A DNA stretch of 64,000 nucleotides, from NCBI GenBank assembly GCA_934234185.1, contig CAKQHO010000004.1, forward strand, positions 15,576-79,575, given 5' to 3'. The position numbers and the translations under genes were made by a program. Under the pieces are notes generated by a model, which saw only the letters and a program-made list of their open reading frames with translations, searched no databases and was not told where the DNA came from. Of this stretch, positions 14,787 to 61,036 are shown piece after piece. The stretch comes from an uncultured Psychrobacillus sp. Lineage in GTDB: Bacteria > Bacillota > Bacilli > Bacillales_A > Planococcaceae. Position 1 is the stretch's first letter, and each line of letters opens with the position of its first letter.

Positions 14787-14798
14787 ACTCATAGGAAT

Positions 14799-40029: not shown

Positions 40030-40111
40030 TTTAGATTCAAAATAAAAGAAAATTTTAAAATGAGCTTGGATATAATTTTTCAAGCTCATTTTTATATGCT
40101 TTTATAGGAGC

Positions 40112-40348: not shown

Positions 40349-40410
40349 GTATTTCCCTCCTCTTCTAAATTTGCAGTACTCAAGCTTCAATTTAAAATAG
40401 CTGATTTCTC

Positions 40411-42760: not shown

Positions 42761-42775
42761 AAGGGAGGAAATCGA

Positions 42776-43300: not shown

Positions 43301-43397
43301 CGATTAGCTAACGAAAAGTTAATGAAGCCCTAACGGACAGTAATTTTTGCGGTGTATTAGTTTTAGTATATTGCTAGAATTTGAATTAAAGGGAGGG

Positions 43398-44369
43398 ATG
43401 ATTGTGGTACGAAAAAAATCTGTATTTACAGTGACAGATGATTTATCAGATGTATTTAATAATCTAACTATCAAGTCAGATGTAACTGTACTAAAGGCAT
43501 TAGAAATAATTCTTAAACAAATGAAAACAACTGGCAATCGTGAAAGGACTCTCTATGATTATGACAAACAAATAAACCATTTCGTTAGGATTACAGGAGT
43601 GGTAAATATCTCTGATATAACAGTTTTTCACATTTACGATTGGATTGAGAGTATGGAAGTAAGTAATGTAACTAAGTTGACCCGTTTGAAGTGTCTTAAA
43701 GCTTTCTTGAATAGATGCTTTAAACTTGGTTGGTTATCTATTCAATTTTGGAATGACATAAAAATTAAAGTTGATAGCCCGATAAAAGAGGGAGCGACAG
43801 AACAAAATGTTCAAACTTTATTAAGACATTTGGATTTTAATGATTTTTTTCAATTACGCGATGCTACAGCTATTTTGACTATGTATCAGACTGGTATTAG
43901 AATTGGTACATTATCGAAAATCACAGAGGGACACATTGACTTAGAGGAAAATGTATTACGAATACCTGGTTCAATAGTAAAAAATCATGAAGAGTTAATA
44001 CTGCCCTTTGACGATGTCTTAGCTCGTTTATTTACGGTACTATTTAAACAAAATGCCATTGTCAGAAAGAATGCAAACAGAAGTAATCAATTGGTATTTA
44101 TAACGAGAAGTGGCGGCTCTAGTCAAAATACAGCGATGAAGAATAACATAATTAGTAAACGTATTGCTCAATACGCTAAAAAATTCAATATAGAAAACGT
44201 TAATCCGCACGCTTTAAGACGTGGATTTGCAATAAATTTGCGAAAAAAGGGTGCTAATATATCACTAATTTCTAATGCATTGGGACATAGTGATTTATCG
44301 GTAACCACACGTTATTTACATTACGATAAATTAGAAATCGCAGAAGAATTACGCAATTTTCTCAAATAA
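43398..44369 (+). CDS. second tyrosine recombinase / integrase (Int2)
   Basis: 'TGIRIGTLSKI' (Arg), 'HALRRGFA' (HxxR), 'LGHSDLSVTTRYLHY' (His, Tyr). Lies in an AT-rich patch. The start is ATG 43398 or GTG 43404, after AAGGGAGGG. Confidence 0.85.
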   Translation: MIVVRKKSVFTVTDDLSDVFNNLTIKSDVTVLKALEIILKQMKTTGNRERTLYDYDKQINHFVRITGVVNISDITVFHIYDWIESMEVSNVTKLTRLKCLKAFLNRCFKLGWLSIQFWNDIKIKVDSPIKEGATEQNVQTLLRHLDFNDFFQLRDATAILTMYQTGIRIGTLSKITEGHIDLEENVLRIPGSIVKNHEELILPFDDVLARLFTVLFKQNAIVRKNANRSNQLVFITRSGGSSQNTAMKNNIISKRIAQYAKKFNIENVNPHALRRGFAINLRKKGANISLISNALGHSDLSVTTRYLHYDKLEIAEELRNFLK

Positions 44370-44410: not shown

Positions 44411-44623
44411 CTATTTACTTTCATTTTTTGAATAGAAAATAATATCTTGCACATTACAATCTAACGCCTCGCAAAGTTTTTGAAGAGTATCAAACTCAAT
44501 TCCATTATTTCTTCCATTAATGATCTTTGATATTCCATTTCTGTGTAGACCCGTCTTTTCTGCAAGGGTACTTATAGTGAATCCTTTCATTTTCATTGTT
44601 TCTTTTAATTTAATAACTATCAT
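44411..44623 (-). CDS. XRE-family repressor (CI-like)
   Basis: 70 aa. 'FTISTLAEKTGLHRNGISKIINGRNNGIEFDTLQKLCEAL' has the HTH_3 pattern. It is divergent from the operator-containing region. Confidence 0.8.
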   Translation of the reverse strand: MIVIKLKETMKMKGFTISTLAEKTGLHRNGISKIINGRNNGIEFDTLQKLCEALDCNVQDIIFYSKNESK

Positions 44624-44666
44624 TTTATGACCTCCTAGTAGATTCTGCTATAAATTATACTATTAG

Positions 44667-44767
44667 CACACTATAGTGTGAATGTAATTTTAAAAAACTT
44701 TTAAAATACTGTTGACTTTGCACACTATAGTGGTTATTATTGGATTAAGAGGTAAACACTATAGTGG
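44667..44767. promoter_or_regulatory. genetic switch: three CACACTATAGTG operators and a rightward sigma-A promoter
   Basis: O1 is cacactatagtgtg (44667-44680), a perfect 14-bp palindrome. O2 is cacactatagtgg (44721-44733) and O3 is aacactatagtgg (44755-44767). The promoter is TTGACT (44712-44717), 17-nt spacer, TATTAT (44735-44740), with O2 inside the spacer. Confidence 0.75.
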
Positions 44768-46040: not shown

Positions 46041-46198
46041 ATACTCGCGCCAACGAGTATGAATACGGTGTGACTGCGCCAACAGTAACGCCAATCGAAA
46101 TTACGCCAATAGTTTCGATGAACTTAATATAGTAACTTGCGCCAACAGGTTACGAACGAAGAGGGATGTCGCGCCAACGATGTTCCTCTTTTTTGTTG
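46041..46198 (+). ncRNA. candidate structured RNA (or ssDNA element): five hairpins with invariant CGCCAA hexaloop, the last one terminator-like
   Basis: H1 46041-46060 ATACTCG[CGCCAA]CGAGTAT. H2 46071-46088 TGACTG[CGCCAA]CAGTAA. H3 46094-46119 ATCGAAATTA[CGCCAA]TAGTTTCGAT. H4 46133-46152 TAACTTG[CGCCAA]CAGGTTA. H5 46160-46189 AGAGGGATGTCG[CGCCAA]CGATGTTCCTCT followed by TTTTTTGTT. The stems differ in sequence but stay complementary, and the G-T wobbles work only on the plus strand. Confidence 0.45.
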
Positions 46199-46492: not shown

Positions 46493-46585
46493 CTCCGCAC
46501 TAGCGATTCTCAAACGATATAACTAGTAGGGGAAGTTCTCCGAAAAGCTCCGCACTAGCGATTTTCAAACGTTAATACTAGTATA
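46493..46585 (+). repeat. two ~38-bp direct repeats, 55 bp apart (iteron-like)
   Basis: ctccgcactagcgattctcaaacgatataactagta (46493-) and ctccgcactagcgattttcaaacgttaatactagta (46548-). Each contains an ACTAG...CTAGT inverted pair. Confidence 0.75.
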
Positions 46586-47446: not shown

Positions 47447-48652
47447 TTGACGGAAATAACAGTAGTAGATGCGGTAATGGGAAGCGGTAAGACGGAGTGG
47501 GCGATTCGATATATGAACGAAGCAAGTCCAACGGAGCATTTTATCTATATAACGCCATTCCTTGCGGAAGTAGAGCGTGTTAAGAAGAGCGTCACAGGGC
47601 GTACTTTCGTAGAGCCTACCATTTATAATGGGACGTCTAAACTCGAGGATTTGAAGCGTCTGATAGCGTCTGACAGGGACATCGTAAGTACACACGCATT
47701 ATTCGCTCGTGCTGACGAAGAAGTAATCGACTTATTGGAGCAATCGGGCTATACGCTGATACTTGACGAGGTGATGGACGTAGTAGACAGCGTTGCGATA
47801 AAGAATACGGATATAAGACGTCTACAATCTAACGGAGACATACTCATCGACAAAGAAACAAAGCGCGTTAAATGGACCGGGGATCCTGACGATAACAGTC
47901 GCTACCGAGACATACGAGAACTTGCACAAGCGGGCAATTTATACGTATTCCGTACATCGTTCATGGTATGGGCGTTTCCGCCAGCAGTATTTAAGGCGTT
48001 CCCGAAAGCTTATGTATTAACGTATCTATTTAAATGCCAGATGCAGCGATATTACTTCGATATGTTCGGCTTCGAATACGCATATAAGAGCGTTGCTATG
48101 GTAGAAGGCGATTATAGGTTGATAGATTACGATGTAAAGCGCGAGAGACGAGAAGAACTGTATAACTTAATCGAAGTCTACGAAGGCAGATTGAACGATA
48201 TAGGAAACGGCAAGTTTGCACTAAGCCAAGCGAAGCTAAAGAAGTGTGACGGTGGATTCCTCGATTCAATAAGGAATAATACGGCAAACTTTTTCCGCCA
48301 TTACGCTAATGCGAAGAAAGCGGACGCATATCTATCTACGCTAAAGGAAGTGCAGGGCCTAGTAACGCCAAGAGGCTTTAAGTCGTCGGTCATTGCGCAT
48401 AACATACGAGCTACTAACGAGTATTCGGACAGATGGGCGGTCGCATACCTGATTAACCGATTTATGAATAAGGACAAAATGGCGTTTTTCCAAGATAACG
48501 GTGTATCGGTAGACGAGGACCTATATGCAATATCGGAATTATTACAGTGGATTTGGCGCTCGAGAATCAGACGAGGGGAGCCAATCAAAGCGTATATTCC
48601 TGCGGAGCGAATGAGGGGACTACTAAAAAGATGGGCTAATTACGAAATCTAA
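47447..48652 (+). CDS. P-loop NTPase, SF2-helicase-like
   Basis: TTG start after TTAGGAGGCGG. Walker A 'AVMGSGKTEWA', Walker B 'LILDEVMD', 'VSTHALF' (motif III-like), and 'QWIWRSRIRRGEPI' (motif VI / arginine-finger-like). Confidence 0.55.
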   Translation: MTEITVVDAVMGSGKTEWAIRYMNEASPTEHFIYITPFLAEVERVKKSVTGRTFVEPTIYNGTSKLEDLKRLIASDRDIVSTHALFARADEEVIDLLEQSGYTLILDEVMDVVDSVAIKNTDIRRLQSNGDILIDKETKRVKWTGDPDDNSRYRDIRELAQAGNLYVFRTSFMVWAFPPAVFKAFPKAYVLTYLFKCQMQRYYFDMFGFEYAYKSVAMVEGDYRLIDYDVKRERREELYNLIEVYEGRLNDIGNGKFALSQAKLKKCDGGFLDSIRNNTANFFRHYANAKKADAYLSTLKEVQGLVTPRGFKSSVIAHNIRATNEYSDRWAVAYLINRFMNKDKMAFFQDNGVSVDEDLYAISELLQWIWRSRIRRGEPIKAYIPAERMRGLLKRWANYEI

Positions 48653-50108: not shown

Positions 50109-50450
50109 ATGAACACGATCAATGAACTTATACGAGTGTTAGAGGAAATGTCGATTATGTGCTTTGTTTCTAACGCTGAACTAAAGGAAGCTGACACTAA
50201 AAAGCGCAAAGAGATAGCAAAAACTTACCTAACGAAAGCTAACGATTTAGAAGCGAAATTGAAATCATTAGAACTTAACGAAAAAGACAGTCAGCACATC
50301 GGACTATTGCGAGATGCCTTCAGAAATCTTTCGAAATTCTACTCGAATATATCGAAAGGCAGAACTGTCTTAGCTTATCAAAATGGACTGATGATGCAAA
50401 AGAAAGTGGCTGACTACTCGAAAAAGAAAGGTATAGGAAAGGGCGGTTAA
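50109..50450 (+). CDS. hypothetical helical protein
   Basis: 113 aa. RBS AAAAGGAG. Immediately precedes the tape-measure gene, with a 1-nt gap. Confidence 0.6.
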   Translation: MNTINELIRVLEEMSIMCFVSNAELKEADTKKRKEIAKTYLTKANDLEAKLKSLELNEKDSQHIGLLRDAFRNLSKFYSNISKGRTVLAYQNGLMMQKKVADYSKKKGIGKGG

Positions 50451-50451
50451 A

Positions 50452-52566
50452 ATGAGTCAAGACATAGTAGTAAAAGTTGGAGCCGACGTATCCGATTTAC
50501 AAAAGAATCTATCGTCGGCAGTTTCAAAGATTCAGAGTTTAGGAAGCGATTTGTCTGCGGTAGGCAGGAGTATGGCAACTACATTCGGAGGAGCGACATT
50601 AGCCATTGGTGGAGGTTTAACATATGCGATAAAACAAGCGGCAGACTTCGATAGTCAGATGCGTAAAGCAGGAGCTATCGCGGGAGCATCAGCAAAGGAA
50701 CTCGATGCAATGCGAGATGCGGCTCTCGATTTAGGGGCAAAAACTTCTGAATCTGCTAGCAGTGTCGCGGTGGCAATGACGGAGATGGCTGCGAAGGGGT
50801 TTAATGCAAACCAAACGATCGCCGCAATGCCGGGAATTATTGCAGCTGCAGAAGCGTCAGGTGAAGATTTGGCATTATCGGCTAATACTGTTTCCTCCGC
50901 ACTTAATATATGGGGCTTAGAGGCTTCTGAAGCGAGTCGAGTTGCTGATATTTTAACTGTGACCGCGAACGAATCAGCAGCAGGAATGCAAGATATGGCT
51001 CTGGCCCTGAAGTACGCTGGCGGGCCAGCAGCGGCGTTAGGAATTTCTCTAGAAGAGTTATCGGCTTCTATTGGCCTAATTGTTGATAGTGGGATTGACG
51101 GGTCTACGGCGGGTACTGCGCTTCGTGCGTCATTATTGGCGCTTAACAATCCGGCAAAAGCACAGGCAAAGATAATGGATAATCTAGGATTCTCAATGAT
51201 TGATGCAAAAGGTAACGCTAAAGGCTTATCAAAGATGATTGCAGACTTGGCGGAATCTACTGCGCACATGTCCGAAGCGGATAAAGTCGCTACGATTGCA
51301 AAACTAGTAGGCACCGAAGCGGTATCGGGCTTTTTAGCACTTATGAAGGCAGGTCCTGACGCTATCGACGCTAATACCGAAGCGCTTCGTAATAGTGAAG
51401 GCGCGGCAAAGGAAGCATCAGACGCAATGAAAAGCGGTATCGGCGGTGCCCTTGAAAATATGATAGGCGCTTTCGAAACTTTATCAATCAAGATTGGTGA
51501 CCAATTAATCCCGTACGTTAAAACTGCAGCGGAATGGCTTGCGGCACTTGCGGACAAGTTCTCAAATTTAAGCGAGGGTACACAAAAGTTCATAGCGGTA
51601 GGAACCGCGATGGTCGGCATTTTTACAGGAGTTATAGCGGGAATAGGCGTTCTAATGATGGCGGTGGGGTCGGTTATTACAGGGTTTACCGCATTTACCG
51701 GGTTACTAGGATCGCTAGCAGGGGCGCTAGGTATTACTGGCGGAGCAAGTGGACTGCTGGGAGCCGCTTTCGGTGTCTTAACTGGACCAATCGGAATTAT
51801 AACAGCAGCAATCGCAGGGATTATCGCGGTAGTCGTATTAGCCTATAAAAATATCGATTGGTTCCGAGAGGGAGTAAATAACGCATGGGCTAAGGTGAAA
51901 GAGGCGACAAGCAAGGCATTCGAAGCAGTAAAGAAAGTCATTTCTACGATTGTAAGTTCGGTAGTCTCGGCTACTAAGGCGCAGCTAGATAAGTTCGTAG
52001 CGTTTTGGGACGAGAATGGTAAGGCGATTATAGACATCGTTAAGTTTGCCTTCGACGACATCGTTATGAAGATAAAGCTGGCGTTGGGAATTATCAAAGG
52101 CGTATTCGAGATGGTGTGGCCTCTTATAAGTGCGACGGTAAGATACGCATGGGAAACAATCAAGCTAGTCGTATCCACCGCAATCAATATCGTACTTGGA
52201 GTTATTCAGACGTTCCTGAAACTAATGCAAGGCGATTGGAAGGGCGCTTGGAATACGATTAAAGAAATACTGATTGCGATATGGGACGATATAGGCGCTT
52301 TCCTGAAAGGTATCAGTCTCGAACAGACGGGTAAGGACATCATCAACGGACTAATCAAAGGTATCGCGTCGATGGGAGGAGCTATATTAGATGCCGCAAA
52401 AGGTCTAGCGAATAGTATTCCTGCTGCAGTTAAGTCAGCCTTAAAGATACATTCTCCTATTAAAAAGTCGAGTCCAAAAACAAAGCGCAAAGCAAACCGG
52501 TTAAAAGAACTCTTAGTAAGCGCAAAAGTAGATAGTATTTCAATTAAAGAGGTGTATTCTCGTTGA
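50452..52566 (+). CDS. phage tail tape-measure protein (TP901-family core)
   Basis: 'FDSQMRKAGAIAGASAKELDAMRDAALDLGAKT', 'VADILTVTANESAAGMQDMALALKYAGGPAAALGISLEELSASIGLIVDSGIDGSTAGTALRASLLALNNP', followed by a Gly/Ala-rich hydrophobic segment. This is the classic TMP core pattern. Confidence 0.85.
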   Translation: MSQDIVVKVGADVSDLQKNLSSAVSKIQSLGSDLSAVGRSMATTFGGATLAIGGGLTYAIKQAADFDSQMRKAGAIAGASAKELDAMRDAALDLGAKTSESASSVAVAMTEMAAKGFNANQTIAAMPGIIAAAEASGEDLALSANTVSSALNIWGLEASEASRVADILTVTANESAAGMQDMALALKYAGGPAAALGISLEELSASIGLIVDSGIDGSTAGTALRASLLALNNPAKAQAKIMDNLGFSMIDAKGNAKGLSKMIADLAESTAHMSEADKVATIAKLVGTEAVSGFLALMKAGPDAIDANTEALRNSEGAAKEASDAMKSGIGGALENMIGAFETLSIKIGDQLIPYVKTAAEWLAALADKFSNLSEGTQKFIAVGTAMVGIFTGVIAGIGVLMMAVGSVITGFTAFTGLLGSLAGALGITGGASGLLGAAFGVLTGPIGIITAAIAGIIAVVVLAYKNIDWFREGVNNAWAKVKEATSKAFEAVKKVISTIVSSVVSATKAQLDKFVAFWDENGKAIIDIVKFAFDDIVMKIKLALGIIKGVFEMVWPLISATVRYAWETIKLVVSTAINIVLGVIQTFLKLMQGDWKGAWNTIKEILIAIWDDIGAFLKGISLEQTGKDIINGLIKGIASMGGAILDAAKGLANSIPAAVKSALKIHSPIKKSSPKTKRKANRLKELLVSAKVDSISIKEVYSR

Positions 52567-53207
52567 CTTTAATTTTATGTTCAAATTTAAACGGCATGAT
52601 GGTAGGAATGTCCTCAGATACAAGACAAGTAATAAGTATAGGAAATATTTTAAGCATGAGGCATGTGGATTCAGAAGGGAAAATTAAGAGACTTTCTAAT
52701 TATGTAATTTTCGGGGGTGGGGGCAAGAATTATTACGTAGACAAAATTAGAGAGCATCTAGAAAAAGAACGGTTCGATTTCCTTGATGAATATTTACCGA
52801 CTGTCGAACTTTTAATTAAAGAGGTTATGAAGGAAAGAGAGAGCCATGAATTATTCCAGTTTATTTTAAATGGATTTAATTCAGATGGAACTACTGGAAT
52901 CATAACTTTTAACGCAGAATCAGACACACAAGCAGAATATAAAGTCTTAGAGTATGGATATTTCCTAGACGAGATAATTGCTCCGTCTGATGATGAACTA
53001 TCAGCAATAGAAGGTTTCCCGATTGAATTCCCGAGTGATATAAGCACTCTCCCACAAACGGTGGTAGAAAGATTTGCGACCATACAGAAAGCTTGTAATG
53101 AGAATGATCCTGAAACAGTTTCCAATAAGTGCGTTTACTCTGTCATCATGAGAGACCCAGTTACTCTAGAGTTCAAGATATATGAAGATACTATTACATT
53201 AACCTAA
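52563..53207 (+). CDS. candidate Ntn-hydrolase of the proteasome beta / HslV type
   Basis: TTG start overlaps the TMP stop. The N-terminus '(M)TLILCSNLNGMMVGMSSDTRQ...KIKRLSNYVIFGGGG' parallels HslV 'TTIVSVRRNGHVVIAGDGQ...KKVRRLYNDKVIAGFAGG', with Thr directly after the initiator. AT-rich patch. Confidence 0.35.
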   Translation: MTLILCSNLNGMMVGMSSDTRQVISIGNILSMRHVDSEGKIKRLSNYVIFGGGGKNYYVDKIREHLEKERFDFLDEYLPTVELLIKEVMKERESHELFQFILNGFNSDGTTGIITFNAESDTQAEYKVLEYGYFLDEIIAPSDDELSAIEGFPIEFPSDISTLPQTVVERFATIQKACNENDPETVSNKCVYSVIMRDPVTLEFKIYEDTITLT

Positions 53208-53221
53208 AAGGGGATAATTAA

Positions 53222-53620
53222 ATGAAAAAATCTACAGTAGAAGCAGAAAACACTAAAAAATTCACTATTGAAGGAGAAGCCCACGAGTTAAAACTTAATT
53301 GGGAATCGATGAAGCAATTAAACAAAATGTATGGAGATGGACAGTTCCAATTGATAGGCAGTGCATTAACGGGGGATTTAGAAACTTATAGTAGAATAAT
53401 TTACGCTGGTTTAATCCATACAAATAAAGATTATACAGTCTATCAAGTTGAAGATGCTATTAACGAAGCTTTCGAAAGTGGAAAAATCACACTTTCAGAG
53501 CTGTACGACACTATTTACACTGTATTACTAGATAATCCGTTCTATAAAGCTACAGTCGATAAGATGATCGGTAAGAGTTCGGAAGTAAAAGAGGCACTTG
53601 AAATGGTGCGAGGTAGATAA
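53222..53620 (+). CDS. phage tail assembly chaperone-like protein
   Basis: 'FTIEGEAHELKLNWESMKQLNKMYG...GSALTGDLETYSRIIYAGLIHT...TVYQVEDAI...LSELYDTIYTVLLDN' follows the pattern I associate with siphovirus gpG-type chaperones. Unusually, it lies downstream of the TMP. Confidence 0.45.
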   Translation: MKKSTVEAENTKKFTIEGEAHELKLNWESMKQLNKMYGDGQFQLIGSALTGDLETYSRIIYAGLIHTNKDYTVYQVEDAINEAFESGKITLSELYDTIYTVLLDNPFYKATVDKMIGKSSEVKEALEMVRGR

Positions 53621-53630
53621 AGAAAAGATG

Positions 53631-53665
53631 AAGCCCTTTGCGAGAAATCGCGGGGCTTTTCATTT
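53631..53665 (+). terminator. rho-independent terminator candidate closing the AT-rich insert
   Basis: AAGCCC...GCGA-GAAA-TCGC...GGGCTT interrupted stem with a GNRA loop, followed by TTTTCATTTTT. Confidence 0.5.
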
Positions 53666-53687: not shown

Positions 53688-54002
53688 ATGGGACGAAAAT
53701 TAGAAATAAGACAGGACTTGCAGCGCCACGGACCTGGTGCTTTCAGCGTTATCGTAAGTGTGACAGAAGGTGAAGTGGAGCTATCGAAAGAGTTTACGTA
53801 TTACAAGACAAATAAGATTTTTCCACTCTATAAGTCGCTTATAGCAACTTTACGGAACTATCGAGATGTAGATGTGATGCTTCATACGGATTTTCCGCGC
53901 TTATCTAGAGAGATTAAAAATATCGAGAAAGCAGAGCGTCCATTATCGATAATGCTTCTTGAATTGCTTACTGACAACAACATAAATATCGAAGTTAAAT
54001 AA
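53688..54002 (+). CDS. hypothetical protein
   Basis: ATG at 53688 follows AAGGGGGAAG. 104 aa. Confidence 0.55.
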   Translation: MGRKLEIRQDLQRHGPGAFSVIVSVTEGEVELSKEFTYYKTNKIFPLYKSLIATLRNYRDVDVMLHTDFPRLSREIKNIEKAERPLSIMLLELLTDNNINIEVK

Positions 54003-54026: not shown

Positions 54027-54140
54027 ATGATAAATGAAGAGTTAAGCAGACAAGCGGAGATGTTACTTGTAGAAATCAACCTTATAAACGAAGAAACTTC
54101 GGCAACTCTCGAGAGAATCGAGGCTTCGGCTTATGAGTAA
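54027..54140 (+). CDS. 37-aa hypothetical protein
   Basis: Not in the ORF track. ATG follows AGAAGGAGAA. Its stop overlaps the HNH gene start. Confidence 0.4.
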   Translation: MINEELSRQAEMLLVEINLINEETSATLERIEASAYE

Positions 54141-54651
54141 AAAGATATGTAGTATTTGTAATGAAATGAAGCCATTAGAAATATTCGAAAAGGACAACAG
54201 GAATAAAAGTAAGTTAGGGGCTAGGTGCCGTCCTTGTAAAAACAACATAGAAAGCAACGCTAAGTCGTATCATTCTTTTTGGAATCTCTCACTCAAAAAA
54301 GGGGTTCCGGTAGAAGTTGAAAAAGCGGATATAAAGATACTTTTTGAGGTTTTTGAGAATACGTGTATCTATTGTGGTAAAAGCGAAGAAGAGGCAGGCA
54401 CTATGCATCTGGAACATATTGTGCCAGTGGTTGCAGGAGGTCGCTCTCATATTTCTAATTTAGTAGTATCTTGTAAGGGATGCAATATGAAAAAAGGAAA
54501 AAAGAGTGTCTTAGAATTTTACCGCTCGCACCAACCGTTCGACGGGCGTCGCCTTGATTACATTTTTAAACACGTTGCTTATTTTTCGAATAGGGATCCC
54601 GAAGAAGTTGCTCGAGAATATTACGGTGCGGCTAAGAAGGAGGTTGGTTAA
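54133..54651 (+). CDS. HNH endonuclease with N-terminal zinc-ribbon
   Basis: 'CIYCGKSEEEAGTMHLEHIVPVVAGGRSHISNLVVSCKGCNMKKG' HNH core. N-terminal 'CSICNE...CRPCK'. Confidence 0.85.
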   Translation: MSKKICSICNEMKPLEIFEKDNRNKSKLGARCRPCKNNIESNAKSYHSFWNLSLKKGVPVEVEKADIKILFEVFENTCIYCGKSEEEAGTMHLEHIVPVVAGGRSHISNLVVSCKGCNMKKGKKSVLEFYRSHQPFDGRRLDYIFKHVAYFSNRDPEEVAREYYGAAKKEVG

Positions 54652-54800
54652 TGCGAAAAGTAGAACGAGGCGTCACTATCGTCGAAGTCGAAGGCGGCTT
54701 TCCGATGACCGTTTATAAGCTTCGGAAGATGTCGTTAGAAGCGATAAAACGATATGGACTGGAAAAGTACGTAAGGGTGAGTGATAAGGATGACGCATAA
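54651..54800 (+). CDS. 49-aa hypothetical protein
   Basis: Not in the ORF track. TAATG overlap with the HNH stop. RBS AAGAAGGAGG upstream. Confidence 0.45.
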   Translation: MRKVERGVTIVEVEGGFPMTVYKLRKMSLEAIKRYGLEKYVRVSDKDDA

Positions 54801-55161
54801 TCGGAAAATAACGAAGTATATCGAGAATCACTGCGCTAATTATGCCGGGGGCGGTCTTTGTCACCTTGCTACGTCGGAAAACGGCTCTCGACTATGCCCA
54901 TTCTTCTACGACTTGGGGCGTAAATGCAAATACGCAGAGCAATCCGTACTACCTGGCGATTATTCGATACTAGCGCTATACAATATGAACAACAAGGGAA
55001 CTACTTCTGCCGACTACTGCGAACGATGCAAAGAGCCATTTGAGCGGTCGAGTCCTCGCCAAATACGTTGTAAATCATGCACTGAAATCGTGCGTAGGAA
55101 TAATCGGAGATATTATAACGCTAACTACCGCAATAAGACGGTTAATAAAAGTACATTTTAG
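54790..55161 (+). CDS. cysteine-rich protein ('Cys-rich VLP'-like)
   Basis: 'HCANYAGGGLCHL...CPFFYDLGRKCKYAEQSVLPGD' contains the VLP motif. C-terminal zinc ribbon 'YCERCKEPF...IRCKSC'. Confidence 0.5.
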   Translation: MTHNRKITKYIENHCANYAGGGLCHLATSENGSRLCPFFYDLGRKCKYAEQSVLPGDYSILALYNMNNKGTTSADYCERCKEPFERSSPRQIRCKSCTEIVRRNNRRYYNANYRNKTVNKSTF

Positions 55162-55687: not shown

Positions 55688-56089
55688 ATGCCTAGACAAC
55701 GACCGATTGAGCGATATGTGCCAAAGCCTGCTAGGCAAACGATAAGTAGGTTGCGGCGTTATGAATTAGAAGAACAATTTAAAGCGGCAGACAAAAAAAC
55801 TTACCTTGAAGGAGAGAAAATAATTATGAATAAATGGGCTGGAGTTAAAGAAATGGTGAAAAGTCAGGTACAAAAACATTTTAATACAGAGGAAGAATTA
55901 CAACAATTCCTAAAAGAAAACCCGCAGTATACGATAAATCAAAGATTCGGATTTTATACAAAGATGATAAATGTAGTGCTTTATGAAAGAGGTTACGCAT
56001 TTACAAAGCAAAACGAGATCGGCTACCGAGTGCCTACACGCTGGCTTACTGCGGAGGAAGTCGAAGAATACCTGAAGGAAACCGCTTAA
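55688..56089 (+). CDS. hypothetical protein (paralog A)
   Basis: 133 aa. The C-terminus 'VVLYERGYAFTKQNEIGYRVPTRWLTAEEVEEYLKE' resembles the C-terminus of the next gene. Confidence 0.6.
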   Translation: MPRQRPIERYVPKPARQTISRLRRYELEEQFKAADKKTYLEGEKIIMNKWAGVKEMVKSQVQKHFNTEEELQQFLKENPQYTINQRFGFYTKMINVVLYERGYAFTKQNEIGYRVPTRWLTAEEVEEYLKETA

Positions 56090-56093: not shown

Positions 56094-56405
56094 ATGATTA
56101 TCGAATATCACGAGTGCTGGCCTGTTCGTAAAATGGTCCGCAGGCAGGAGTATCGGTCGTTCTCTAATCGGGACGACCTTTCGTTATGCCTTCATACGTG
56201 CGACTACGATAACCATTGCGTGCTAGAAGAATCTGCGGAGGCTATAACGGTAATACTATACGACTATAGCTACGCATTGACTTCGCACGACCGATTCGGA
56301 GAGCGATATGTCATACGCTGGCTATCCGAAGAAGAGAGCGAGAGATACCTCGCGGATAATACGTATCATCCATATAAAAACGCAAGGAATGACGAAAATG
56401 ACTAA
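56094..56405 (+). CDS. hypothetical protein (paralog B)
   Basis: 103 aa. C-terminus 'VILYDYSYALTSHDRFGERYVIRWLSEEESERYLAD'. Confidence 0.55.
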   Translation: MIIEYHECWPVRKMVRRQEYRSFSNRDDLSLCLHTCDYDNHCVLEESAEAITVILYDYSYALTSHDRFGERYVIRWLSEEESERYLADNTYHPYKNARNDEND

Positions 56406-56581: not shown

Positions 56582-57157
56582 ATGACTAACTTACAAACAT
56601 TCGAGAAACAAATTAACGGAGACATTCAACGCTATAGAACTGCAGTAAACTTCGCTACTGGTACAGAGGAAGAGAAAGCGGCAAAGCAAGCGGAAGCATT
56701 CGCGGAACTAGAAAGCAAAGTAACCGCTACACGCGAGGATTACGAGCAATATCGTACTGGTGAGATTGAGCGCACTGAAAAAGAAAGACACTTGTTTAGG
56801 CATCCTGAATTAAAGCACCAAGATTCAAAAGTTGCGAAATCAATTGCGGATAAGTTCTACGTAGAATTGATCGCTGCAGAAGACGCGCAAGCACAGAACA
56901 ACGTATTAAGGGAGCTAGAAGATACGCTGAAATACTTCGAAGATGGCGCTAAATTCGCTTTCTACGAGCATATTCCGATGATTAACTCGCTATTAGTCGA
57001 TAAGGCAGCGTCTAAGGGCGCATTGCAAGCGGTAATTGCCGAGATGAAGGATTATGTGAATCCGTATGAAGTTTGGCATAAAGAAGCGCAAGAGCTACCG
57101 ACTGTTATCGGTGAGGACTTCGATACGATTAAGGCTGAACTTGAACAGGGGGAATAG
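56582..57157 (+). CDS. hypothetical acidic helical protein
   Basis: 191 aa. RBS GGGGGAA. Coiled-coil-like, so a scaffold-like function is possible but unsupported. Confidence 0.6.
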   Translation: MTNLQTFEKQINGDIQRYRTAVNFATGTEEEKAAKQAEAFAELESKVTATREDYEQYRTGEIERTEKERHLFRHPELKHQDSKVAKSIADKFYVELIAAEDAQAQNNVLRELEDTLKYFEDGAKFAFYEHIPMINSLLVDKAASKGALQAVIAEMKDYVNPYEVWHKEAQELPTVIGEDFDTIKAELEQGE

Positions 57158-57159: not shown

Positions 57160-57561
57160 ATGCGTCCTACCCGAAGATATAAGGAATATAGCGATAAATT
57201 CTCAACTGAAGAAGGTAAAACCCGGCGCAATGACATTCTTGCGTCGGAATACCCTCAATATACCCACGGCGGCGTTACATTAGACGCTAGTAAATTTCCC
57301 GTTGGCTATAACGATAGTGGGCATCTAATCGCAAGGAATATAAATACCGGAAAATATGAGCCGTATACGGAAACGATACCAGGGAAATTAACCTCAAAAT
57401 ACGATAATTTCGGTATATTGAACGAAGGATTTAATAACGATGGAGTGAACGATTTAGTATCGGGTCTAGCGGTAATAGAAGGTAGCGTGTATCTTCATAC
57501 TCTGCCGTCAAAACCAACGGAAGCATTTAGACGAGCTACTCCGAAAATACATTACGTATAA
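57160..57561 (+). CDS. hypothetical protein
   Basis: 133 aa. RBS AGGGGGAA. 2-nt gap from the upstream gene. Confidence 0.6.
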   Translation: MRPTRRYKEYSDKFSTEEGKTRRNDILASEYPQYTHGGVTLDASKFPVGYNDSGHLIARNINTGKYEPYTETIPGKLTSKYDNFGILNEGFNNDGVNDLVSGLAVIEGSVYLHTLPSKPTEAFRRATPKIHYV

Positions 57562-57578: not shown

Positions 57579-57902
57579 ATGTACAAAGAATATCGCATCA
57601 AAGTCGAGAAGGATATTCACGGCAGAACTTCGGTTACTGGACGTCCGCAGATGCCAGGATTCCGCTATACAGTGACGGCTGAAACCGATACTAGTGTCGA
57701 GAAATTGACGTCAGTAACGAATAAGCCGCTATACGAGGCACTAGACGAGGCACTATCGATCCTGCTAATGTTACTGGCGCAACGTGACGAGCAGGCAATT
57801 GTTAAAGTCGTTCATTATACCGTACCTGTAAGCGATGGGCTTAAACGGATGCTAGCGGATAAGTACGCCAGCGAATCGCAATTCGTAAATCTGATACTAT
57901 AA
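57579..57902 (+). CDS. hypothetical protein
   Basis: 107 aa. RBS TAGGGAGGAAA. Last gene of the long rightward operon. Confidence 0.6.
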   Translation: MYKEYRIKVEKDIHGRTSVTGRPQMPGFRYTVTAETDTSVEKLTSVTNKPLYEALDEALSILLMLLAQRDEQAIVKVVHYTVPVSDGLKRMLADKYASESQFVNLIL

Positions 57903-58152
57903 ACGGCGCTCTACTTCTTAAACGGAGGTAGGGCGTCTCTTTTTTTGCTGATTTTCGGTGATAATAACTAATATATGTAATTACGTAGAGATACGTAGAA
58001 TAGAGCGCTAGAGTCCGATTGACTTGCAACGGTAAAACACGGTCAAACTCCGATTGAAAATAGCGCAATGACGTATGCATTTTAACGTAGATATAACATT
58101 AAATAAATACGCGCTTGCACAGTCGAAACATTGCACGCATAGGACACGTTCA

Positions 58153-58824
58153 TTATAGCGGTATATTATATAGAAGAAACTCCGTTTTACTGATGTCCGA
58201 TAATGCCGAATTTTGCACGATTTTCGCTATATTTTAACGGGCATAACTGTGCACTTTTCGTGTTAGATTACGTTATATTTTTTGCAATTTTAACTCGTCA
58301 AAACACGTCAAATCCATCGGAGTACATCGGAGTAAATAACGATAATTTCATGCAAGTTGGCGCAAGTTTTATCGTACATTATCAGACTATAACCGCAAGT
58401 TTACTAAAATGACGTAATTAGCTTCGTTTATATAGAAGGAATGCGGATTCTACGGTTTAGTACGCTTTAGTTTATGGTTGCGATTTCTTGCGATTTATCA
58501 GGCGACTTGCTGCCGCGTGCGAGAGTCCAAACGCTTTAAACGTGTCCATCGGTTCGATTATCGTACTAGGTCGATGTAAACTAACGAAATATTATCGCAG
58601 TATATAGAAGAAAGCCGTAAATGGCGTTTTACATACGTTGTCACTATGAGCATATCGCAGGGTTCAATCAGGCGATCCGTTCACCAGGCGATGCCTTCGA
58701 AAAACCGAGGGGTCGCATAACGTTATTATCGAATAGCTATATAGAAGAAACTGCGTAATTATGATGCGACTATTTGCGACTCTACTCGGAACTAGCGCAA
58801 TTATCGAAGGTTATATAGAAGGAA
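58153..58824 (+). repeat. iteron field: five TATATAGAAGRAA boxes, four of them preceded by ATTATMG
   Basis: Boxes lie at 58167-58179, 58429-58441, 58601-58613, 58738-58750 and 58812-58824. ATTATAG/ATTATCG lies 3-7 nt upstream of boxes 1, 3, 4 and 5. The region also holds CAGGCGA three times (58499, 58669, 58685) and TTGCGATTT twice in tandem (58478, 58488). Confidence 0.8.
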
Positions 58825-58920
58825 AGCGAAATAATCAGTTCCGAATAGTTCCGATTTACAAGGTGAGAGGGTCTGGCGTGCGTGTCTCCGATTACTTTGC
58901 GTAATCATAACTGTTAAGTA

Positions 58921-58949
58921 TTGACTACGATATGCCAACGTGATAAGAT
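58921..58949 (+). promoter_or_regulatory. sigma-A promoter candidate of the serine recombinase, bracketed by CGTAATCAWAA repeats
   Basis: TTGACT, 17-nt spacer, TAAGAT, with TG at -15/-14. CGTAATCATAA at 58900-58910, CGTAATCAAAA at 58961-58971, CGTAATCATAA at 58974-58984. Confidence 0.5.
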
Positions 58950-58998
58950 AGCCTTATAAACGTAATCAAAACTCGTAATCATAAATGGAGGCTATCGA

Positions 58999-59562
58999 AT
59001 GACACGATACGGCTACGCAAGGGTAAGCGGAACGTCACAGGACTTAACAGAACAGATTGCGAGATTACAAGACGCAGGATGCACCGAGATATTAAGCGAG
59101 AAGCATACCGGTACTAAGAAGGAAAGACCGGAGTTCCAACGTGTGCTATCGCTATTGCAAGAAGGAGATACGTTAGTAGTTACGAAGCTAGACCGCTTTG
59201 CTCGTTCGGCAGAGGATGGCATAACGATTATCAAGGCGCTTATAAGACGCGGTGTAAGCGTTCATATACTGAATATGGGCGTAGTAGAGGACACGCAGAT
59301 AGGTCGCTTGCTTCTTACGATAATGGCAGGCTTCGCGGAGTTCGAACGAGATATGATCGTGGAGAGACTAGCGGAAGGAAAGGCGCAAGCAAAGCAGCGT
59401 GACGACTACCGAGAAGGTAGACCGAATAAGTTTTCGAAGAAGCAACTCGACCATGCTATGACGTTACTAGAGACGCATAGCTATACGGAAGTCGAGCGCA
59501 TGACAGGCATAAGTAAAGCGACACTGACGAGACACAAACGAAAGATCAAAGCGAAGACATGA
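58999..59562 (+). CDS. small serine recombinase (resolvase/invertase family)
   Basis: '[12 protein letters not shown]' (catalytic Ser), '[12 protein letters not shown]', and C-terminal HTH '[14 protein letters not shown]'. 187 aa. Confidence 0.9.
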
Positions 59563-59664: not shown

Positions 59665-60636
59665 TCAATCTGAATTTAGTTCTTTCTCCTTTTGTAGTAT
59701 TAACCTTTCTAATTTTGTCCAGCTTTCTTTAAACATTGAAGGATCTTCATTGAAAAATTTAACCTCCACTTTTGAATCATCTTCTTCTTTTTTGAAATCT
59801 GTTTCCAGAAGACCATTTAATATACCTAAAGTAATATCAACGTTAGATATAGGGCTGCCAGTAAACAAATCTAGGGAAGTAAAGAGAAAATGTTTTTTGT
59901 TAAAATCATCGAGGTGATTAAATTTAAACTCTTCACAGTATTTAGTTAGTATTTTGTAATACGTATAAACTGTTAACTCAATATTCTGCTTAGTGTTCGA
60001 TTGTTTATCGATTGGTTGGTTGTCGTAAAACAGCTCGTTATCTGACTGTAGCAAAAAGAAATTTTCTATGCTCATATTGCAGTGGACAAATTTTGAGAGA
60101 GATCCATAGGTTTCTTTATAAAAAATTAACAAGCCAGTTTCTTTCGCCATTTCCTCTACTGATGGGATAACTTTATATTGCTTGTTGGTTTGGTCAGTAT
60201 ATAGTTGCTTGCAGTCATTTATTATTTGATGACGTTTGTCCCAAAGTTTTGTATTAACTAAGTATTTTACTGGTCGAGAGTTTACTAAAGCGTATAGTAA
60301 TTGAGCTTGGTCTCTTACTCTTTCTCTAAGGTAGTATTCAAATGAATTAGTCTTTGAAAGATACTCAATTCTAATGAAAATTTCTACAATTTTCCTGGAA
60401 ATTATCTTTGCATCGTGAACGTGGTTATGCTCTATTAATGTAAAGTATGAATGCATACTTTTATATGCATTTAAAAGCAATAAATTTAATACCCTGTTTT
60501 TAGGGTTCGATTCTTCGAATACCATTTCTTTTGATATCTCTGTGCTTATTTTCATAAGGTCTTCATAGGCATCTGAATAGATTTTTGGGTTATTTACTAA
60601 ATCCCTTAACATCTCTTTTAATTCCTTTTTATCCAT
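59665..60636 (-). CDS. hypothetical cargo protein, possibly DUF5677 / AbiV-like
   Basis: ATG at 60636 follows TAGGAGGT. An all-helical-looking, Lys/Asn-rich 323-aa protein in a very AT-rich patch. 'LLLLNAYKSMHSYFTLIEHNHVHDAKIISRKIVEIFIRIEYL' and 'YGSLSKFVHCN' resemble the DUF5677 pattern as I recall it. Confidence 0.3.
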   Translation of the reverse strand: MDKKELKEMLRDLVNNPKIYSDAYEDLMKISTEISKEMVFEESNPKNRVLNLLLLNAYKSMHSYFTLIEHNHVHDAKIISRKIVEIFIRIEYLSKTNSFEYYLRERVRDQAQLLYALVNSRPVKYLVNTKLWDKRHQIINDCKQLYTDQTNKQYKVIPSVEEMAKETGLLIFYKETYGSLSKFVHCNMSIENFFLLQSDNELFYDNQPIDKQSNTKQNIELTVYTYYKILTKYCEEFKFNHLDDFNKKHFLFTSLDLFTGSPISNVDITLGILNGLLETDFKKEEDDSKVEVKFFNEDPSMFKESWTKLERLILQKEKELNSD

Positions 60637-60776
60637 ATTGTAATACCTCCTATTCCATACCATAATATACCACTACTATATATGAAAAAGGATCTTATTT
60701 ATAGATTATTTTTAAAGATGCTAAACATAATTGGAAAAGATACCTTGCACAGAAAACACAAGCGTTAATCCTACAA

Positions 60777-60951: not shown

Positions 60952-60980
60952 CTTGCCCCTGTAGTTTAATGGATATGACG
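60952..60980 (+). repeat. attR core: 29-bp direct repeat (start of the intact tRNA-Arg)
   Basis: Identical to 38872-38900. Confidence 0.9.
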
Positions 60981-61026
60981 TAAGATTCCGGTTCTTGAGA
61001 TGGGGGTTCGATTCCCTCCAGGGGCG
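60955..61026 (+). tRNA. tRNA-Arg (anticodon CCG)
   Basis: Manual cloverleaf. Acceptor GCCCCTG/CAGGGGC. D arm GTT(T)-AATGGATA-(T)GAC. Anticodon stem TAAGA/TCTTG with loop TTCCGGT. T arm GGGGG-TTCGATT-CCCTC. Discriminator G. CCA is not encoded (TCA follows). Confidence 0.85.
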
Positions 61027-61036
61027 TCACATAGAA

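Follow-up and report, generated by a model that had tools for sequence, protein, structure and literature searches.

The analysed window, a 64-kb stretch of DNA from an uncultured Psychrobacillus sp., was annotated as containing an integrated, satellite-like element of ~16 kb, at ~43.3-59.6 kb. Genes are on the forward strand unless stated otherwise. As far as discernible, the left end of the element is formed by a tyrosine integrase gene (43347-44369; Pfam Phage_integrase, E = 3e-28), and a repeat search found no att direct repeats around the element. A Cro/CI-type HTH repressor is encoded on the reverse strand (44411-44623; HTH_26, E = 2.6e-17), divergent from the main forward operons, and shares 71% and 66% identity with its equivalents in the related elements L005 and L004. 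It is followed by two divergent promoter-like sites carrying short ACACTATAGTG repeats (44654-44740), a candidate genetic switch whose scan scores (11/12 and 10/12) and repeats (D10 and D15) are consensus matches only. A 401-aa P-loop NTPase of the YonV_C/phrog_2467 family (47447-48652; phrog_2467, E = 2e-64) carries a Walker A GSGKT and an LILDEV motif and is presumed to serve replication; PF27199 YonV_C is annotated on the identical copy of the gene in L001, and its single-sequence AlphaFold2 model was unusable (pLDDT 38.6). The element combines its own integrase with a divergent repressor switch and a presumed replication module. At the right end, a small serine recombinase of the resolvase/invertase type (58999-59562; phrog_125, E = 1e-57) probably belongs to the element, as L053, a related element, has a closely similar protein at its corresponding end; resolvase genes are also found in L005 and L092. 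No helper prophage is present in the window, where core chromosome (uvrBA, hprK, his, cofD) occupies 10-38 kb; this and the lack of att repeats count against a satellite.

The late operon contains a cassette of four genes, in the order 113-aa protein, tape measure protein (TMP), putative proteasome-like Thr hydrolase and tail assembly chaperone (TAC). The first three are tightly or translationally coupled, and the TAC gene begins 14 nt past the stop codon of the enzyme gene. The module formed by the last three (50452-53620) had been delineated in a sequence-only reading of this DNA, with exact coordinates and reading frames. The 113-aa helical protein (50109-50450) stops 1 nt ahead of the TMP start. 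Its profile, built from the window, L003, L004 and L005, also detects L053 (E = 1e-29) and has no match among the ORFs that precede the TMP genes of prophages L006 and L007; by profile comparison, it is a conserved upstream partner of the putative satellite TMPs. Directly past the TAC gene lies a terminator-like hairpin (53636-53655, forward strand; 8-bp stem, then a T-rich tail; consensus match only), followed by a conserved 104-aa protein with its own ribosome-binding site (53688-54002), which is 49% identical to the ORF downstream of the L002 TAC and has an L053 homologue seen by direct reading. The late operon also holds an HNH nuclease (54133-54651; HNH_5, E = 2.8e-13; 49% identity to counterparts in L005 and L002) and a copy of a helper-type head-decoration protein. 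The latter (57160-57561) resembles lambda gpD (HDPD) by transitive homology: it matches phrog_11771 (E = 2e-20) and shares 48% identity with the L006 ORF that separates the scaffold gene from the major capsid gene, and the HDPD profile matches 3/5 members of its family (best E = 7e-6), with the window protein alone reaching only E = 0.21. Just upstream, a 191-aa acidic helical protein (56582-57157) sits where a scaffold gene would be; it has no profile matches, does not resemble the scaffolds of L006 or L007, and is "scaffold-like" by position only. The final gene of the late operon encodes a 107-aa protein (57579-57902; 38% identity to an L003 ORF) and is followed by a strong terminator-like hairpin (57905-57937; 14-bp stem, a consensus match).

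The late operon has no gene for a capsid, portal, large terminase, tail tube, baseplate or lysis protein. The sequence-only reading was off in two details: that no other virion gene is present conflicts with the gpD-like homologue, and that no other ORF is long enough for a portal, terminase or capsid protein is at odds with the 401-aa NTPase, whose length would suffice for a capsid protein or small terminase. The profile searches proposed at the time nevertheless gave no match to standard capsid, portal or terminase genes in the element (Pfam, PHROG, NCBIfam), nor did the NTPase match a terminase, portal or capsid model among Pfam, PHROG and NCBIfam-type profiles.

The TMP (50452-52566; 704 aa) is a member of the TP901 family, as had been recognized from its sequence, with matches to Pfam PhageMin_Tail (E = 4e-44), TIGR01760 tape_meas_TP901 (E = 6e-74) and phrog_1533 (E = 4e-135) and a Gly/Ala-rich hydrophobic stretch at ~aa 385-470. 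Residues 1-671 are 67% identical to the 1205-aa TMP of prophage L006, and the core is 52% identical to the L007 TMP. Similarity to phage TMPs stops at aa 671, and their final ~100 or more residues are missing. In their place is a basic tail of ~35 aa (aa 671-704, ...HSPIKKSSPKTKRKANRLKELL...EV..; 52462-52563), which is conserved among elements with just 47-61% identity, is kept in 9/120 of the closest TMP homologues plus L002 and L090, and is absent from the phage TMPs compared. At the protein level, this satellite-type tail is, in the alignments, a conserved feature specific to these elements. The GC content is 0.44-0.53 across the TMP body but only 0.36-0.30 over 52400-52650, coinciding with the end of phage-TMP similarity and the C-terminal tail. 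The AT-rich switch previously noted by eye is thus borne out by measurement, but its attribution to a recent recombination is not, since the tail encoded there is conserved and co-occurs with the proteasome-like gene. When the tail was used prospectively as a predictor, the proteasome-like gene was present in 3/3 loci (L088, L091, L092); L053, a related element whose TMP ends as in phages, lacks the proteasome-like gene.

The proteasome-like ORF (52563-53207; 214 aa) starts with the TTG of a TTGA sequence that overlaps the TMP stop by 4 nt, and is preceded at 8 nt by a ribosome-binding site, AAGAGGTG; the TTG start is supported because homologues likewise open with MTL, and it puts Thr at position 2. 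The protein is not matched by any model of Pfam, PHROG, NCBIfam or PADLOC. Its AlphaFold2 model (pLDDT 95.3) is predicted to have the proteasome-beta (Ntn) fold, consistent with the Ntn-hydrolase-like character that had been assigned to this overlapping ORF: Foldseek returned 982 PDB matches at E<=1e-3 (TM 0.55-0.69), the top ones all 20S proteasome beta subunits. In a 39-sequence family alignment, D19, K40, G54 and G104 show no variation, and conservation reaches at least 90% at each of T2, T20 and R21. D19 and K40 line up with the DTR motif and next lysine of the proteasome beta chain, and a Thr1/Asp17/Lys33/Gly47-like catalytic set is kept. Catalytic competence is a prediction from residue conservation and a modelled fold, which is a point against the satellite reading. 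The family is absent among 50,697 phage records, 72,556 plasmids and 80 IMG/VR TMP loci. The Firmicute clusters FC1-FC5 are likewise proteasome-beta-like, stand-alone proteins of ~200-230 aa without a propeptide and with Thr1/Asp17/Lys33/Gly47; the C-terminal domains of FC4 resemble phage tail proteins, according to the authors, and no function-suggesting genomic context was reported (Fuchs, Alva, Lupas, Bioinformatics 2021, PMC8665760). The window family, likened to these clusters by description, always accompanies a TMP gene in the satellite-like islands. In the literature searched, no paper connects proteasome homologues with tape measures or satellites.

The gpG-like TAC proposed to follow the enzyme gene (53222-53620) is confirmed by Phage_TAC_12 (E = 1.7e-13; 51.4 bits, cut-off 26.2) and shares 34-35% identity with its counterparts in prophages L006 and L007. 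Numerous stops interrupt the -1 frame downstream, indicating that it has no frameshifted T extension, which normally brings in the tube protein; this counts against the element being a functional satellite.

The TMP and enzyme genes are found together well beyond the window. In 10/10 distinct loci (the window, which equals L001, together with L002-L005 and L088-L092) from Psychrobacillus, Sporosarcina, Heyndrickxia and metagenomes, comprising at least three genera, the proteasome-like ORF comes immediately 3' of a TMP gene. L088 was compared by similarity alone, over 8 kb that end within its TMP, and L002 is a 3.4-kb contig on which only the cassette is visible. The linkage holds even for family members 22-24% identical to the window protein, and the 4-nt overlap is found in seven loci; this gene order is a conserved family trait and no accident. 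No recognisable TAC lies beside the pair in L005 and L091, indicating a looser linkage of the TAC than of the enzyme, another point against the satellite reading. No Pfam capsid, portal, terminase or lysis match occurs in the gene tables of L001-L005 and L089-L092. Repressors are found throughout, and integrases in the window/L001, L004 and L005, with those of L003 only beside or beyond an adjoining FtsK element. Replication modules vary (primase-polymerase/D5_N in L089, AEP-TOTE in L091 and L092, HTH_36 in L003-L005, YonV-like in the window). L003, L004, L005, L091 and L092 each have a small-terminase-like HTH_Tnp_1_2 gene, and L003 has a fragment resembling a helper scaffold protein. The cassette homologues contain no internal stops and show dN of 0.27-0.74 with saturated dS, a comparison across islands that had been suggested beforehand. 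With the recurrence in 10 loci, this upholds the argument from intact frames and tight coupling against decay.

Prophages L006 and L007 have related TMPs in the canonical order TerS-TerL-portal-scaffold-decoration-MCP...tube-TAC-TMP-Dit. Compared with the canonical siphovirus module (TAC G/GT - TMP - Dit - Tal), the TMP core and the TAC are clear homologues, but the order is inverted, with the TAC after the TMP and without a T frameshift extension, the proteasome-like gene takes the place of Dit and Tal, and the final ~100 or more TMP residues are swapped for the ~35-aa basic tail. A precedent is provided by the Vibrio cholerae PLEs, whose tmp-tac(-bhuB) genes supply a TMP and TAC that supplant their helper counterparts in the virion, giving chimeric tails; PLEs without tmp lose 96-99.9% of transduction, and the hub protein BhuB, which partners the end of the TMP, is a third protein that PLEs replace (Mathur, Boyd et al., Nature 2026, PMC12987554). 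Like the PLEs, the window element would be a small integrative satellite with few virion genes and its own TMP and TAC. Unlike the PLEs, which use the myovirus ICP1 in a Gram-negative host, it resides in Bacillales with a presumed TP901/SPP1-like siphovirus helper; its TMP is 67% identical to a phage-type TMP (~20% to the helper TMP for PLEs) and has a family-specific, truncated basic tail, and its third gene encodes a predicted proteasome-fold Thr hydrolase instead of a baseplate hub. Gram-positive PICIs and SaPIs share the size of ~15 kb, integrase, divergent repressor switch, mosaic replication modules (with primases in the relatives), TerS-like gene (in the relatives), capsid-related accessory gene and lack of lysis genes. 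Classical PICIs, however, have no tail genes, whereas the window element has a TMP, a TAC, a gpD-like gene and a second (serine) recombinase, and lacks a recognisable primase-replicase or terS. This absence of a small terminase and primase also counts against a satellite. EPIP satellites of Mycolicibacterium, compared by description, are again small, with a tape measure gene as a notable feature, and form particles of altered tail length (Qian et al., bioRxiv 2025, PMC12822802); they differ in being ~11 kb, in Actinobacteria, with a terminase small subunit, adaptor and stopper, scaffold and serine integrase, and no proteasome-like gene is reported (PMC12822802).

It thus appears somewhat probable that ~43.3-59.6 kb is an integrative phage satellite, of a Bacillales lineage not yet described, that builds chimeric helper tails with its own TMP and TAC. 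Of the interpretations in the sequence-only reading, the satellite with its own TMP and TAC is favoured because the cassette recurs in at least 10 small elements or contigs, its ORFs are intact and the PLE precedent is published. During replication of an L006-type helper siphovirus, with an SPP1-like portal, lambda-E-like capsid, gpD-like decoration protein and TP901-type TMP, the satellite TMP and its chaperone would join the helper tail-assembly line. By analogy with the PLEs, the outcome would be chimeric tails on satellite particles, of ~105 nm (704 aa) under the rule of 1.5 Angstrom per residue, compared to ~180 nm for a 1205-aa helper TMP. The proteasome-like enzyme, produced in step with the TMP, probably acts on its basic tail, most likely binding or cleaving it as a processing step or checkpoint that may let the truncated TMP engage the helper tail tip; alternatively, it may remove the helper's own TMP.

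The C-terminal region of siphovirus TMPs is located in the tail-tip complex. A TMP lacking tip-region residues might therefore fail at tail nucleation and could be a poison, which is a further count against a satellite that builds tails. The truncated TMP, solubilized by its chaperone, would then be a decoy that co-assembles or competes with the helper TMP, chaperone and tube protein without nucleating tails, with the enzyme degrading helper tail components in defence or competition. Such a role, which the sequence-only reading had raised as a decoy or exclusion factor, is unlikely, if credible: it is consistent with the departure from phage TMPs exactly at aa 671, the missing T extension and the 67% identity to helper-type TMPs, which might allow mixed trimers. 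PLE11 Rta blocks the ICP1 TMP (PMC12987554), and the blocking of tail assembly is a documented theme in defence, with papers on Tai systems (PMC11364771) and on a prophage-encoded virion-assembly inhibitor (PMC10884400). Known satellites spread via helper tails, however, making a non-selective poison self-defeating, and PADLOC has no match for the TMP, enzyme or TAC. The location in a late operon with capsid-related and, in relatives, packaging genes fits particle building, and the dedicated chaperone and full-length TMP conservation, including the membrane-like segment, suggest that the TMP is used and not merely displayed.

That membrane-like segment, the long hydrophobic Gly/Ala stretch, could instead point to abortive infection, in which a latent membrane-active TMP toxin is held by the chaperone and/or tail until the protease frees it on phage sensing, killing the cell or blocking DNA entry. 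TMPs are intrinsically toxic according to the PLE paper (PMC12987554), and translational coupling joins a conserved, protease-like partner to a C-terminal peptide that is itself conserved. This is nonetheless improbable, as no PADLOC defence-system model matched, no sensor domain is evident, the genes lie beside a head-decoration homologue in a late operon and not in a stand-alone defence cassette, and a toxin would not need high similarity to the helper TMP over 671 residues. Least probable is a decaying prophage, its tail module scrambled by deletions and recombination amid unrelated cargo: the absence of tube, Dit, Tal, capsid, portal and terminase genes, the composition break within the TMP gene and one metagenomic copy, otherwise 100% identical, with a disrupted proteasome-like ORF are in its favour, but it is contradicted by the identical order and TMP truncation point across 10 loci, which span at least three genera plus several metagenomes, by intact frames, the conserved overlap and the dN and dS values, by a tail motif kept at the protein level, and by elements that have regulation and replication modules of their own and, in many cases, a TerS-like gene. 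For the satellite that we favour, the TMP/enzyme/TAC trio in related elements hints at a new route to hijack the tail of a helper phage.

The module at 50452-53620 that a sequence-only reading had singled out consists of three plus-strand reading frames lying exactly at the positions it gave, and its assignment of these to a TP901-type tape measure, a proteasome-like (Ntn) protein and a tail chaperone is borne out by profile matches and structure prediction. The first frame encodes a tape measure protein (TMP) of 704 amino acids (50452-52566), which matches PF10145 (E 4e-44, 151 bits, curated cut-off 33.2), TIGR01760 (E 6e-74, 249 bits, curated cut-off 28.8) and phrog_1533 (E 4e-135). Its top match among sequenced phages is in Geobacillus virus E2 (44% identity), and a Gly/Ala-rich hydrophobic block can be read from its translation at about residues 385-470. 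The gene is preceded by one for a 113-aa protein of no known family, and followed by the proteasome-like gene and then by the tail assembly chaperone (TAC) gene. At this locus, the TMP thus does not occupy its canonical position, flanked by TAC G/GT and Dit within a full tail module, and the non-canonical order that had been noted, with the TAC after the TMP and no Dit, is confirmed. The order is canonical in two true prophages with related TMPs, L006 (TMP of 1205 aa) and L007 from Niallia circulans (TMP of 770 aa), which run TerS, TerL, SPP1-type portal, DUF4355 scaffold, HDPD (lambda gpD-like) decoration and Phage_cap_E, and further on tube, TAC, TMP and Dit. A 321-aa antisense reading frame within the TMP gene (50655-51620, minus strand) is in all likelihood not a gene but a consequence of coding sequence rich in GC and Ala/Gly.

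The window TMP can be aligned with phage TMPs to residue 671 only, with 67% identity to that of L006 and 52% to that of L007. The C-terminal end of phage TMPs sits in the tail tip, and phage TMPs run on for about 100 or more residues past an I(H/N)SP motif (I(H/N)SPSR). The phage-type region beyond this motif is absent from the window TMP, which carries a 34-aa basic tail there instead, including the segment ...HSPIKKSSPKTKRKANRLKELL... The consensus of this tail among the island TMPs is P-I-E-K-S-S-P-K-T-K-x-R-A-x-K-L-x3-L...E-V; it is recognizable even in the TMP of the distant metagenomic locus L090, and a linker of about 46 residues before it is retained in some TMPs and deleted in others. 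Such a satellite-type tail is found in 9 of the 120 closest TMP homologues. Across the body of the TMP gene the GC fraction is 0.44-0.53, falling to 0.30-0.36 at 52.40-52.65 kb. The switch to AT-rich composition that had been seen by eye is therefore real, and it marks a real junction, since the tail is conserved and travels with the enzyme gene, and since a related element without that gene (L053) is the converse case. The idea of a recent scar does not stand, because the tail is conserved together with the enzyme; the junction is old and functional.

The proteasome-like protein (52563-53207, plus strand), identified by its predicted fold and conserved catalytic set, is encoded by a reading frame that starts at the TTG of a TTGA, overlapping the TMP stop codon by 4 nt, 8 nt 3' of the ribosome-binding site AAGAGGTG. 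The deposited gene call (P0001, 202 aa) takes an internal Met as its start, 12 codons late (52563-52601), and omits the first 12 residues, including a conserved Met-Thr-Leu with the putative catalytic threonine, which this late start hides. Homologues begin with MTL, supporting the long form, and the TTG with its strong ribosome-binding site is the better call. The enzyme has no match among the models of Pfam, PHROG, NCBIfam or PADLOC. A word-indexed protein search recovered only 3-5 homologues, and an exhaustive HMM search of representatives was needed to reveal a family of 69 clusters (50% identity) at E<=1e-3, with lengths of 160-290 aa, save one repeat protein of 3129 aa; most members align from residue 1. 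No member was found by tblastn in 50,697 phage records or 72,556 plasmids, and an alignment of two sequences gave no match in genome, viral and metagenome contigs.

In an alignment of 39 sequences, D19, K40, G54 and G104 are invariant, conservation reaches at least 90% at M1, T2, L3, T20, R21, P141, V186 and S187, and T2 is present in 38, with Ser in the remaining one. Searched against the PDB, the profile of the family matches dozens of proteasome beta subunits weakly but uniformly, and D19 and K40 line up with the DTR motif and next lysine of a proteasome beta6 chain. AlphaFold2, provided with the same alignment, predicts a confident model (pLDDT 95.3, pTM 0.91) of 12 strands and 4 helices in the order beta/alpha/beta/alpha/beta. 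Foldseek finds 982 PDB matches to this model at E<=1e-3, the best 50 of which are exclusively 20S beta subunits (TM 0.55-0.69, probability 1.00); the top viral match, with 14% identity, is to a phage protein annotated as proteasome-like. Fuchs et al. (2021) defined the proteasome-like family by a Thr1/Asp17/Lys33 triad with an oxyanion Gly47, and its fold by a beta-sheet core S1-S11 with two flanking helix pairs H1-H4 (PMC8665760). The model and its Foldseek matches show this fold, and the sequence supplies the Thr1/Asp17/Lys33/Gly47 set as a predicted catalytic set. Since the threonine directly follows the initiator Met, and methionine aminopeptidase removes the initiator Met to expose the next residue, this peptidase would expose the threonine with no need for a propeptide.

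Genomic contexts were gathered for relatives of the enzyme or the TMP, giving ten distinct loci out of the 69 enzyme clusters. These are from Sporosarcina sp. ITBMC105 (L004), Psychrobacillus sp. INOP01 (L005), Sporosarcina sp. ACRSL (L088, for which similarity was checked only within an 8-kb stretch), Heyndrickxia sp. MSNUG (L091) and metagenomes, the metagenomic loci being L001, L002 (a 3.4-kb contig with the cassette only), L003, L092, and L089 and L090, whose enzymes are only 22-24% identical to the window protein. In all ten, the enzyme gene is directly 3' of the TMP gene. The two overlap by 4 nt in seven loci and by 26 nt in L090, and abut in L089 (all loci but L088). L001 is a copy of the window element, 100% identical over 20 kb save for 182 bp (L001 9956-10137) that take the place of 36 bp (window 52739-52774) inside the enzyme gene; this replacement splits the reading frame and adds a nucleotidyltransferase-like N-terminus (faint PF01909 match), and may be an assembly artefact (a chimera) or a very recent disruption. 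The called genes of loci with gene tables have no Pfam match to capsid, portal, terminase or lysis families, and all of these loci have repressors. Integrases are found in the window element and L001, L004 and L005; in L003 they occur only beside or beyond an adjacent FtsK element. Replication modules are interchangeable among the loci (primase-polymerase/D5_N/DUF5906, AEP-TOTE, HTH_36 or YonV-like), and a small-terminase-like HTH_Tnp_1_2 gene is present in five of them (L003, L004, L005, L091 and L092).

The association was also tested prospectively, by picking loci on the TMP tail alone. A degenerate DNA pattern for the tail found one species-representative genome, that with L088, and L091 and L092 were reached via the proteins P0083 and P0036; the enzyme gene lies downstream in all three (HMM E 1e-70 to 1e-80). 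As controls, 80 IMG/VR loci were retrieved via an alignment of TMP C-termini, and all 80 are phage-type or lack the enzyme gene, which occurs in none. Among them is L053 (IMGVR_UViG_3300014613_000130, 4836-15150), a small relative that has in common with the window element a 116-aa gene upstream of the TMP and, from translations read directly, homologues of the 104-aa protein, HNH and Cys-rich protein as well as a serine recombinase that is closely similar. L053 has a TMP end of the phage type and no enzyme gene, with its TAC found about 3 kb downstream, making it a natural "minus enzyme" comparison. The enzyme co-occurs with the special TMP tail and would be produced along with the TMP, and it most likely acts on this tail. 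Checking homologues for stops revealed no internal stops in the TMP, enzyme and TAC genes compared, the L001 copy being the sole exception. Between loci, dN is 0.27-0.74 with synonymous sites saturated, and dN/dS is 0.14-0.20 where dS could be computed. Together with the conserved overlap, these intact frames and ratios argue against decay, which the sequence-only reading had listed among its possibilities.

The TAC (53222-53620, plus strand) matches Phage_TAC_12 (E 1.7e-13; 51.4 bits, cut-off 26.2). A TAC gene follows the TMP/enzyme pair in the window element, L002, L003, L004, L088 and L092, and none follows it in L005 or L091. A programmed -1 frameshift yielding a G-T fusion was considered and rejected, the -1 frame past the TAC being full of stops; the reading frame that comes next lies in +1, begins at an ATG with a ribosome-binding site of its own and, in L002, is set apart from the TAC by 95 nt.

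The element that harbors this cassette spans about 43.3-59.6 kb, and its coding is all on the plus strand, the repressor excepted. A tyrosine integrase (43347-44369) is followed by a Cro/CI-type repressor (44411-44623, minus strand) that faces promoter-like sites and short repeats, several HTH proteins recognized by Pfam, and a 401-aa P-loop protein of the YonV_C/phrog_2467 family (47447-48652). The late cassette, from the 113-aa protein to the TAC (50109-53620), is followed by the 104-aa protein of no known family (53688-54002), the HNH endonuclease (54133-54651), the Cys-rich protein (54781-55161), several small reading frames, a 191-aa acidic protein (56582-57157), a 133-aa head-decoration-like protein (57160-57561), a 107-aa protein (57579-57902) with a strong terminator-like hairpin next to it (57905-57937), and the small serine recombinase (58999-59562). 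Two of the small proteins (55688-56089 and 56094-56405) are adjacent, have a common C-terminal motif RWLT/SxEExExYL and both match one reading frame of L005; they look like tandem paralogues conserved in related elements. Two 36-nt direct repeats (46493-46583; 89% identical and spaced by 55 nt) are located about 190 nt 5' of an HTH gene at 46774, just past a strong terminator-like hairpin (46158-46191), and may serve as operators or iterons. Several imperfect direct repeats (TATATAGAAG... and CGTAATTA/CGTAATCAT...) are present in the non-coding DNA (58167-58987) that separates the serine recombinase from the terminator of the late operon; they may represent recombinase sites, an origin or a site for packaging.

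Profile annotation of all plus-strand reading frames of at least 150 aa at 43.3-59.6 kb reveals no capsid, portal, terminase, tube, baseplate or lysis family. The claim that the cassette is accompanied by no other virion genes thus holds for core virion families by profile, but not for the 133-aa protein. This protein has a phrog match and is 48% identical to the product of the L006 gene between the scaffold and major capsid genes; three of five members of its family match Pfam HDPD (best E 7e-6; window protein E 0.21). The homology to L006 and the family matches indicate that the element carries one capsid-accessory gene, and this gpD-like gene suggests an involvement with the capsid. The 191-aa protein shows no similarity to helper scaffolds, and the label "scaffold" would reflect its position only. 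A terminase role for the 401-aa P-loop protein is not supported; it has no sequence match in the PDB, and its single-sequence AlphaFold2 model (pLDDT 38.6) is unusable. The window element yielded no TerS-like gene, and by megablast its 15 kb have no match among 50,697 phage records.

The limits of the element are approximate, as there are no convincing flanking direct repeats that could be att sites, and the tRNA-Arg at 60954 has no partial copy near 43.3 kb. The DNA at 10-38 kb belongs to the core chromosome, with uvrB, uvrA and hprK as well as the his operon and cofD. Directly to the left lies a separate element (39025-43300) with an integrase (39025-40029), FtsK_SpoIIIE (40918-42279), Replic_Relax (42011-42760) and a 174-aa protein (42776-43300), resembling an integrative mobilizable element. 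The same integrase/FtsK/Replic_Relax module also adjoins the elements in L003, L004, L091 and L092 and the prophage L006, which may indicate that they share an insertion site, have accreted in tandem or are functionally linked. To the right, a DUF5677 gene (59665-60663, minus strand; E 1e-15) lies between the serine recombinase and the tRNA-Arg(CCG) (60954-61028); it also follows the element in L001 and could be cargo or a neighboring gene.

Based on the integrase, the switch, the mosaic replication module, the TerS-like gene in relatives, the capsid-accessory gene and the lack of lysis and core virion genes, the architecture is most likely that of a phage satellite. Satellites of this kind have precedents. 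The PLEs of V. cholerae put their own TMP, TAC and hub protein into chimeric tails of ICP1 parts, and a PLE without tmp loses 96-99.9% of transduction; putative tmp genes have been reported in other satellites (2026; PMC12987554). EPIP satellites of Mycolicibacterium likewise encode a TMP, and their tails are altered (PMC12822802). The window element is similarly small and integrative, encodes tmp and tac, and lacks capsid, portal, large terminase, tube, baseplate and lysis genes. It resembles the PICIs in its integrase and divergently transcribed repressor/regulator pair. Unlike the PICIs, it has the virion structural genes for TMP, TAC and a gpD-like protein, and a YonV-like P-loop NTPase in place of the primase-replicase (pri-rep), where its relatives have D5_N/primase-polymerase or AEP-TOTE modules.

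By analogy with the PLEs, the TMP and TAC of the element would build tails from the tube and tip proteins of a helper. With 1.5 Angstrom of tail per TMP residue, the 704-aa TMP would yield a tail of about 105 nm, compared to about 180 nm for the 1205-aa TMP of the presumed helper type. The enzyme would act on the tail of the satellite TMP, through processing, tethering or a checkpoint; alternatively, it would remove the helper TMP, in functional analogy to PLE11 Rta. We put forward, tentatively, the possibility that the threonine hydrolase is a dedicated satellite tail-assembly enzyme, which may either recognize the conserved basic tail of the truncated TMP and cleave or ligate it, allowing a TMP that lacks the usual tip-binding end to be fitted into helper tails, or selectively destroy the helper TMP. 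A TMP without the phage-type end and a TAC without the T extension would also fit a dominant-negative decoy, which these two features make a serious alternative, even if a rather unlikely one. That the cassette is an abortive-infection or toxin module is improbable, as this idea has little positive support and PADLOC gives no match. A decaying remnant is scarcely credible, being contradicted by the conserved cassette, the co-occurrence of tail and enzyme, and selection.

TMP- and TAC-bearing satellites are already known; what is new here is a Gram-positive lineage with a siphovirus-type TMP, and neither its proteasome-like partner nor the tail of the TMP seems to have been reported before. The literature searched holds no paper with both "proteasome" and "phage satellite", and none linking a tape measure to a proteasome homologue. 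For the Firmicute clusters FC1-FC5, whose representatives include WP_075525441.1 and of which FC4 has phage-tail-like C-terminal domains, a survey of proteasome homologues published in 2021 came upon no genomic context that was informative (PMC8665760). In the ten loci covered here, the enzyme family is strictly linked to a TMP gene, and for orphan proteasome homologues this linkage, with a co-occurring C-terminal peptide, provides a concrete substrate hypothesis. The absence of the enzyme gene from all 80 IMG/VR loci indicates that virus-calling pipelines likely overlook such islands.

The C-termini of the lambda (gpH to H*) and T5 (pb2) tape measures are trimmed by unidentified proteases, and a dedicated enzyme could shed light on this trimming. 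The locus defines a Gram-positive lineage that probably pursues tail piracy as the PLEs do, with an additional component that is sharply delimited and testable. If the role of the threonine hydrolase in satellite tail assembly is true, this would be the first function assigned to an orphan bacterial proteasome homologue of this kind and the first enzyme tied to tape-measure processing, and would add a new tail-piracy mechanism for Gram-positive bacteria.
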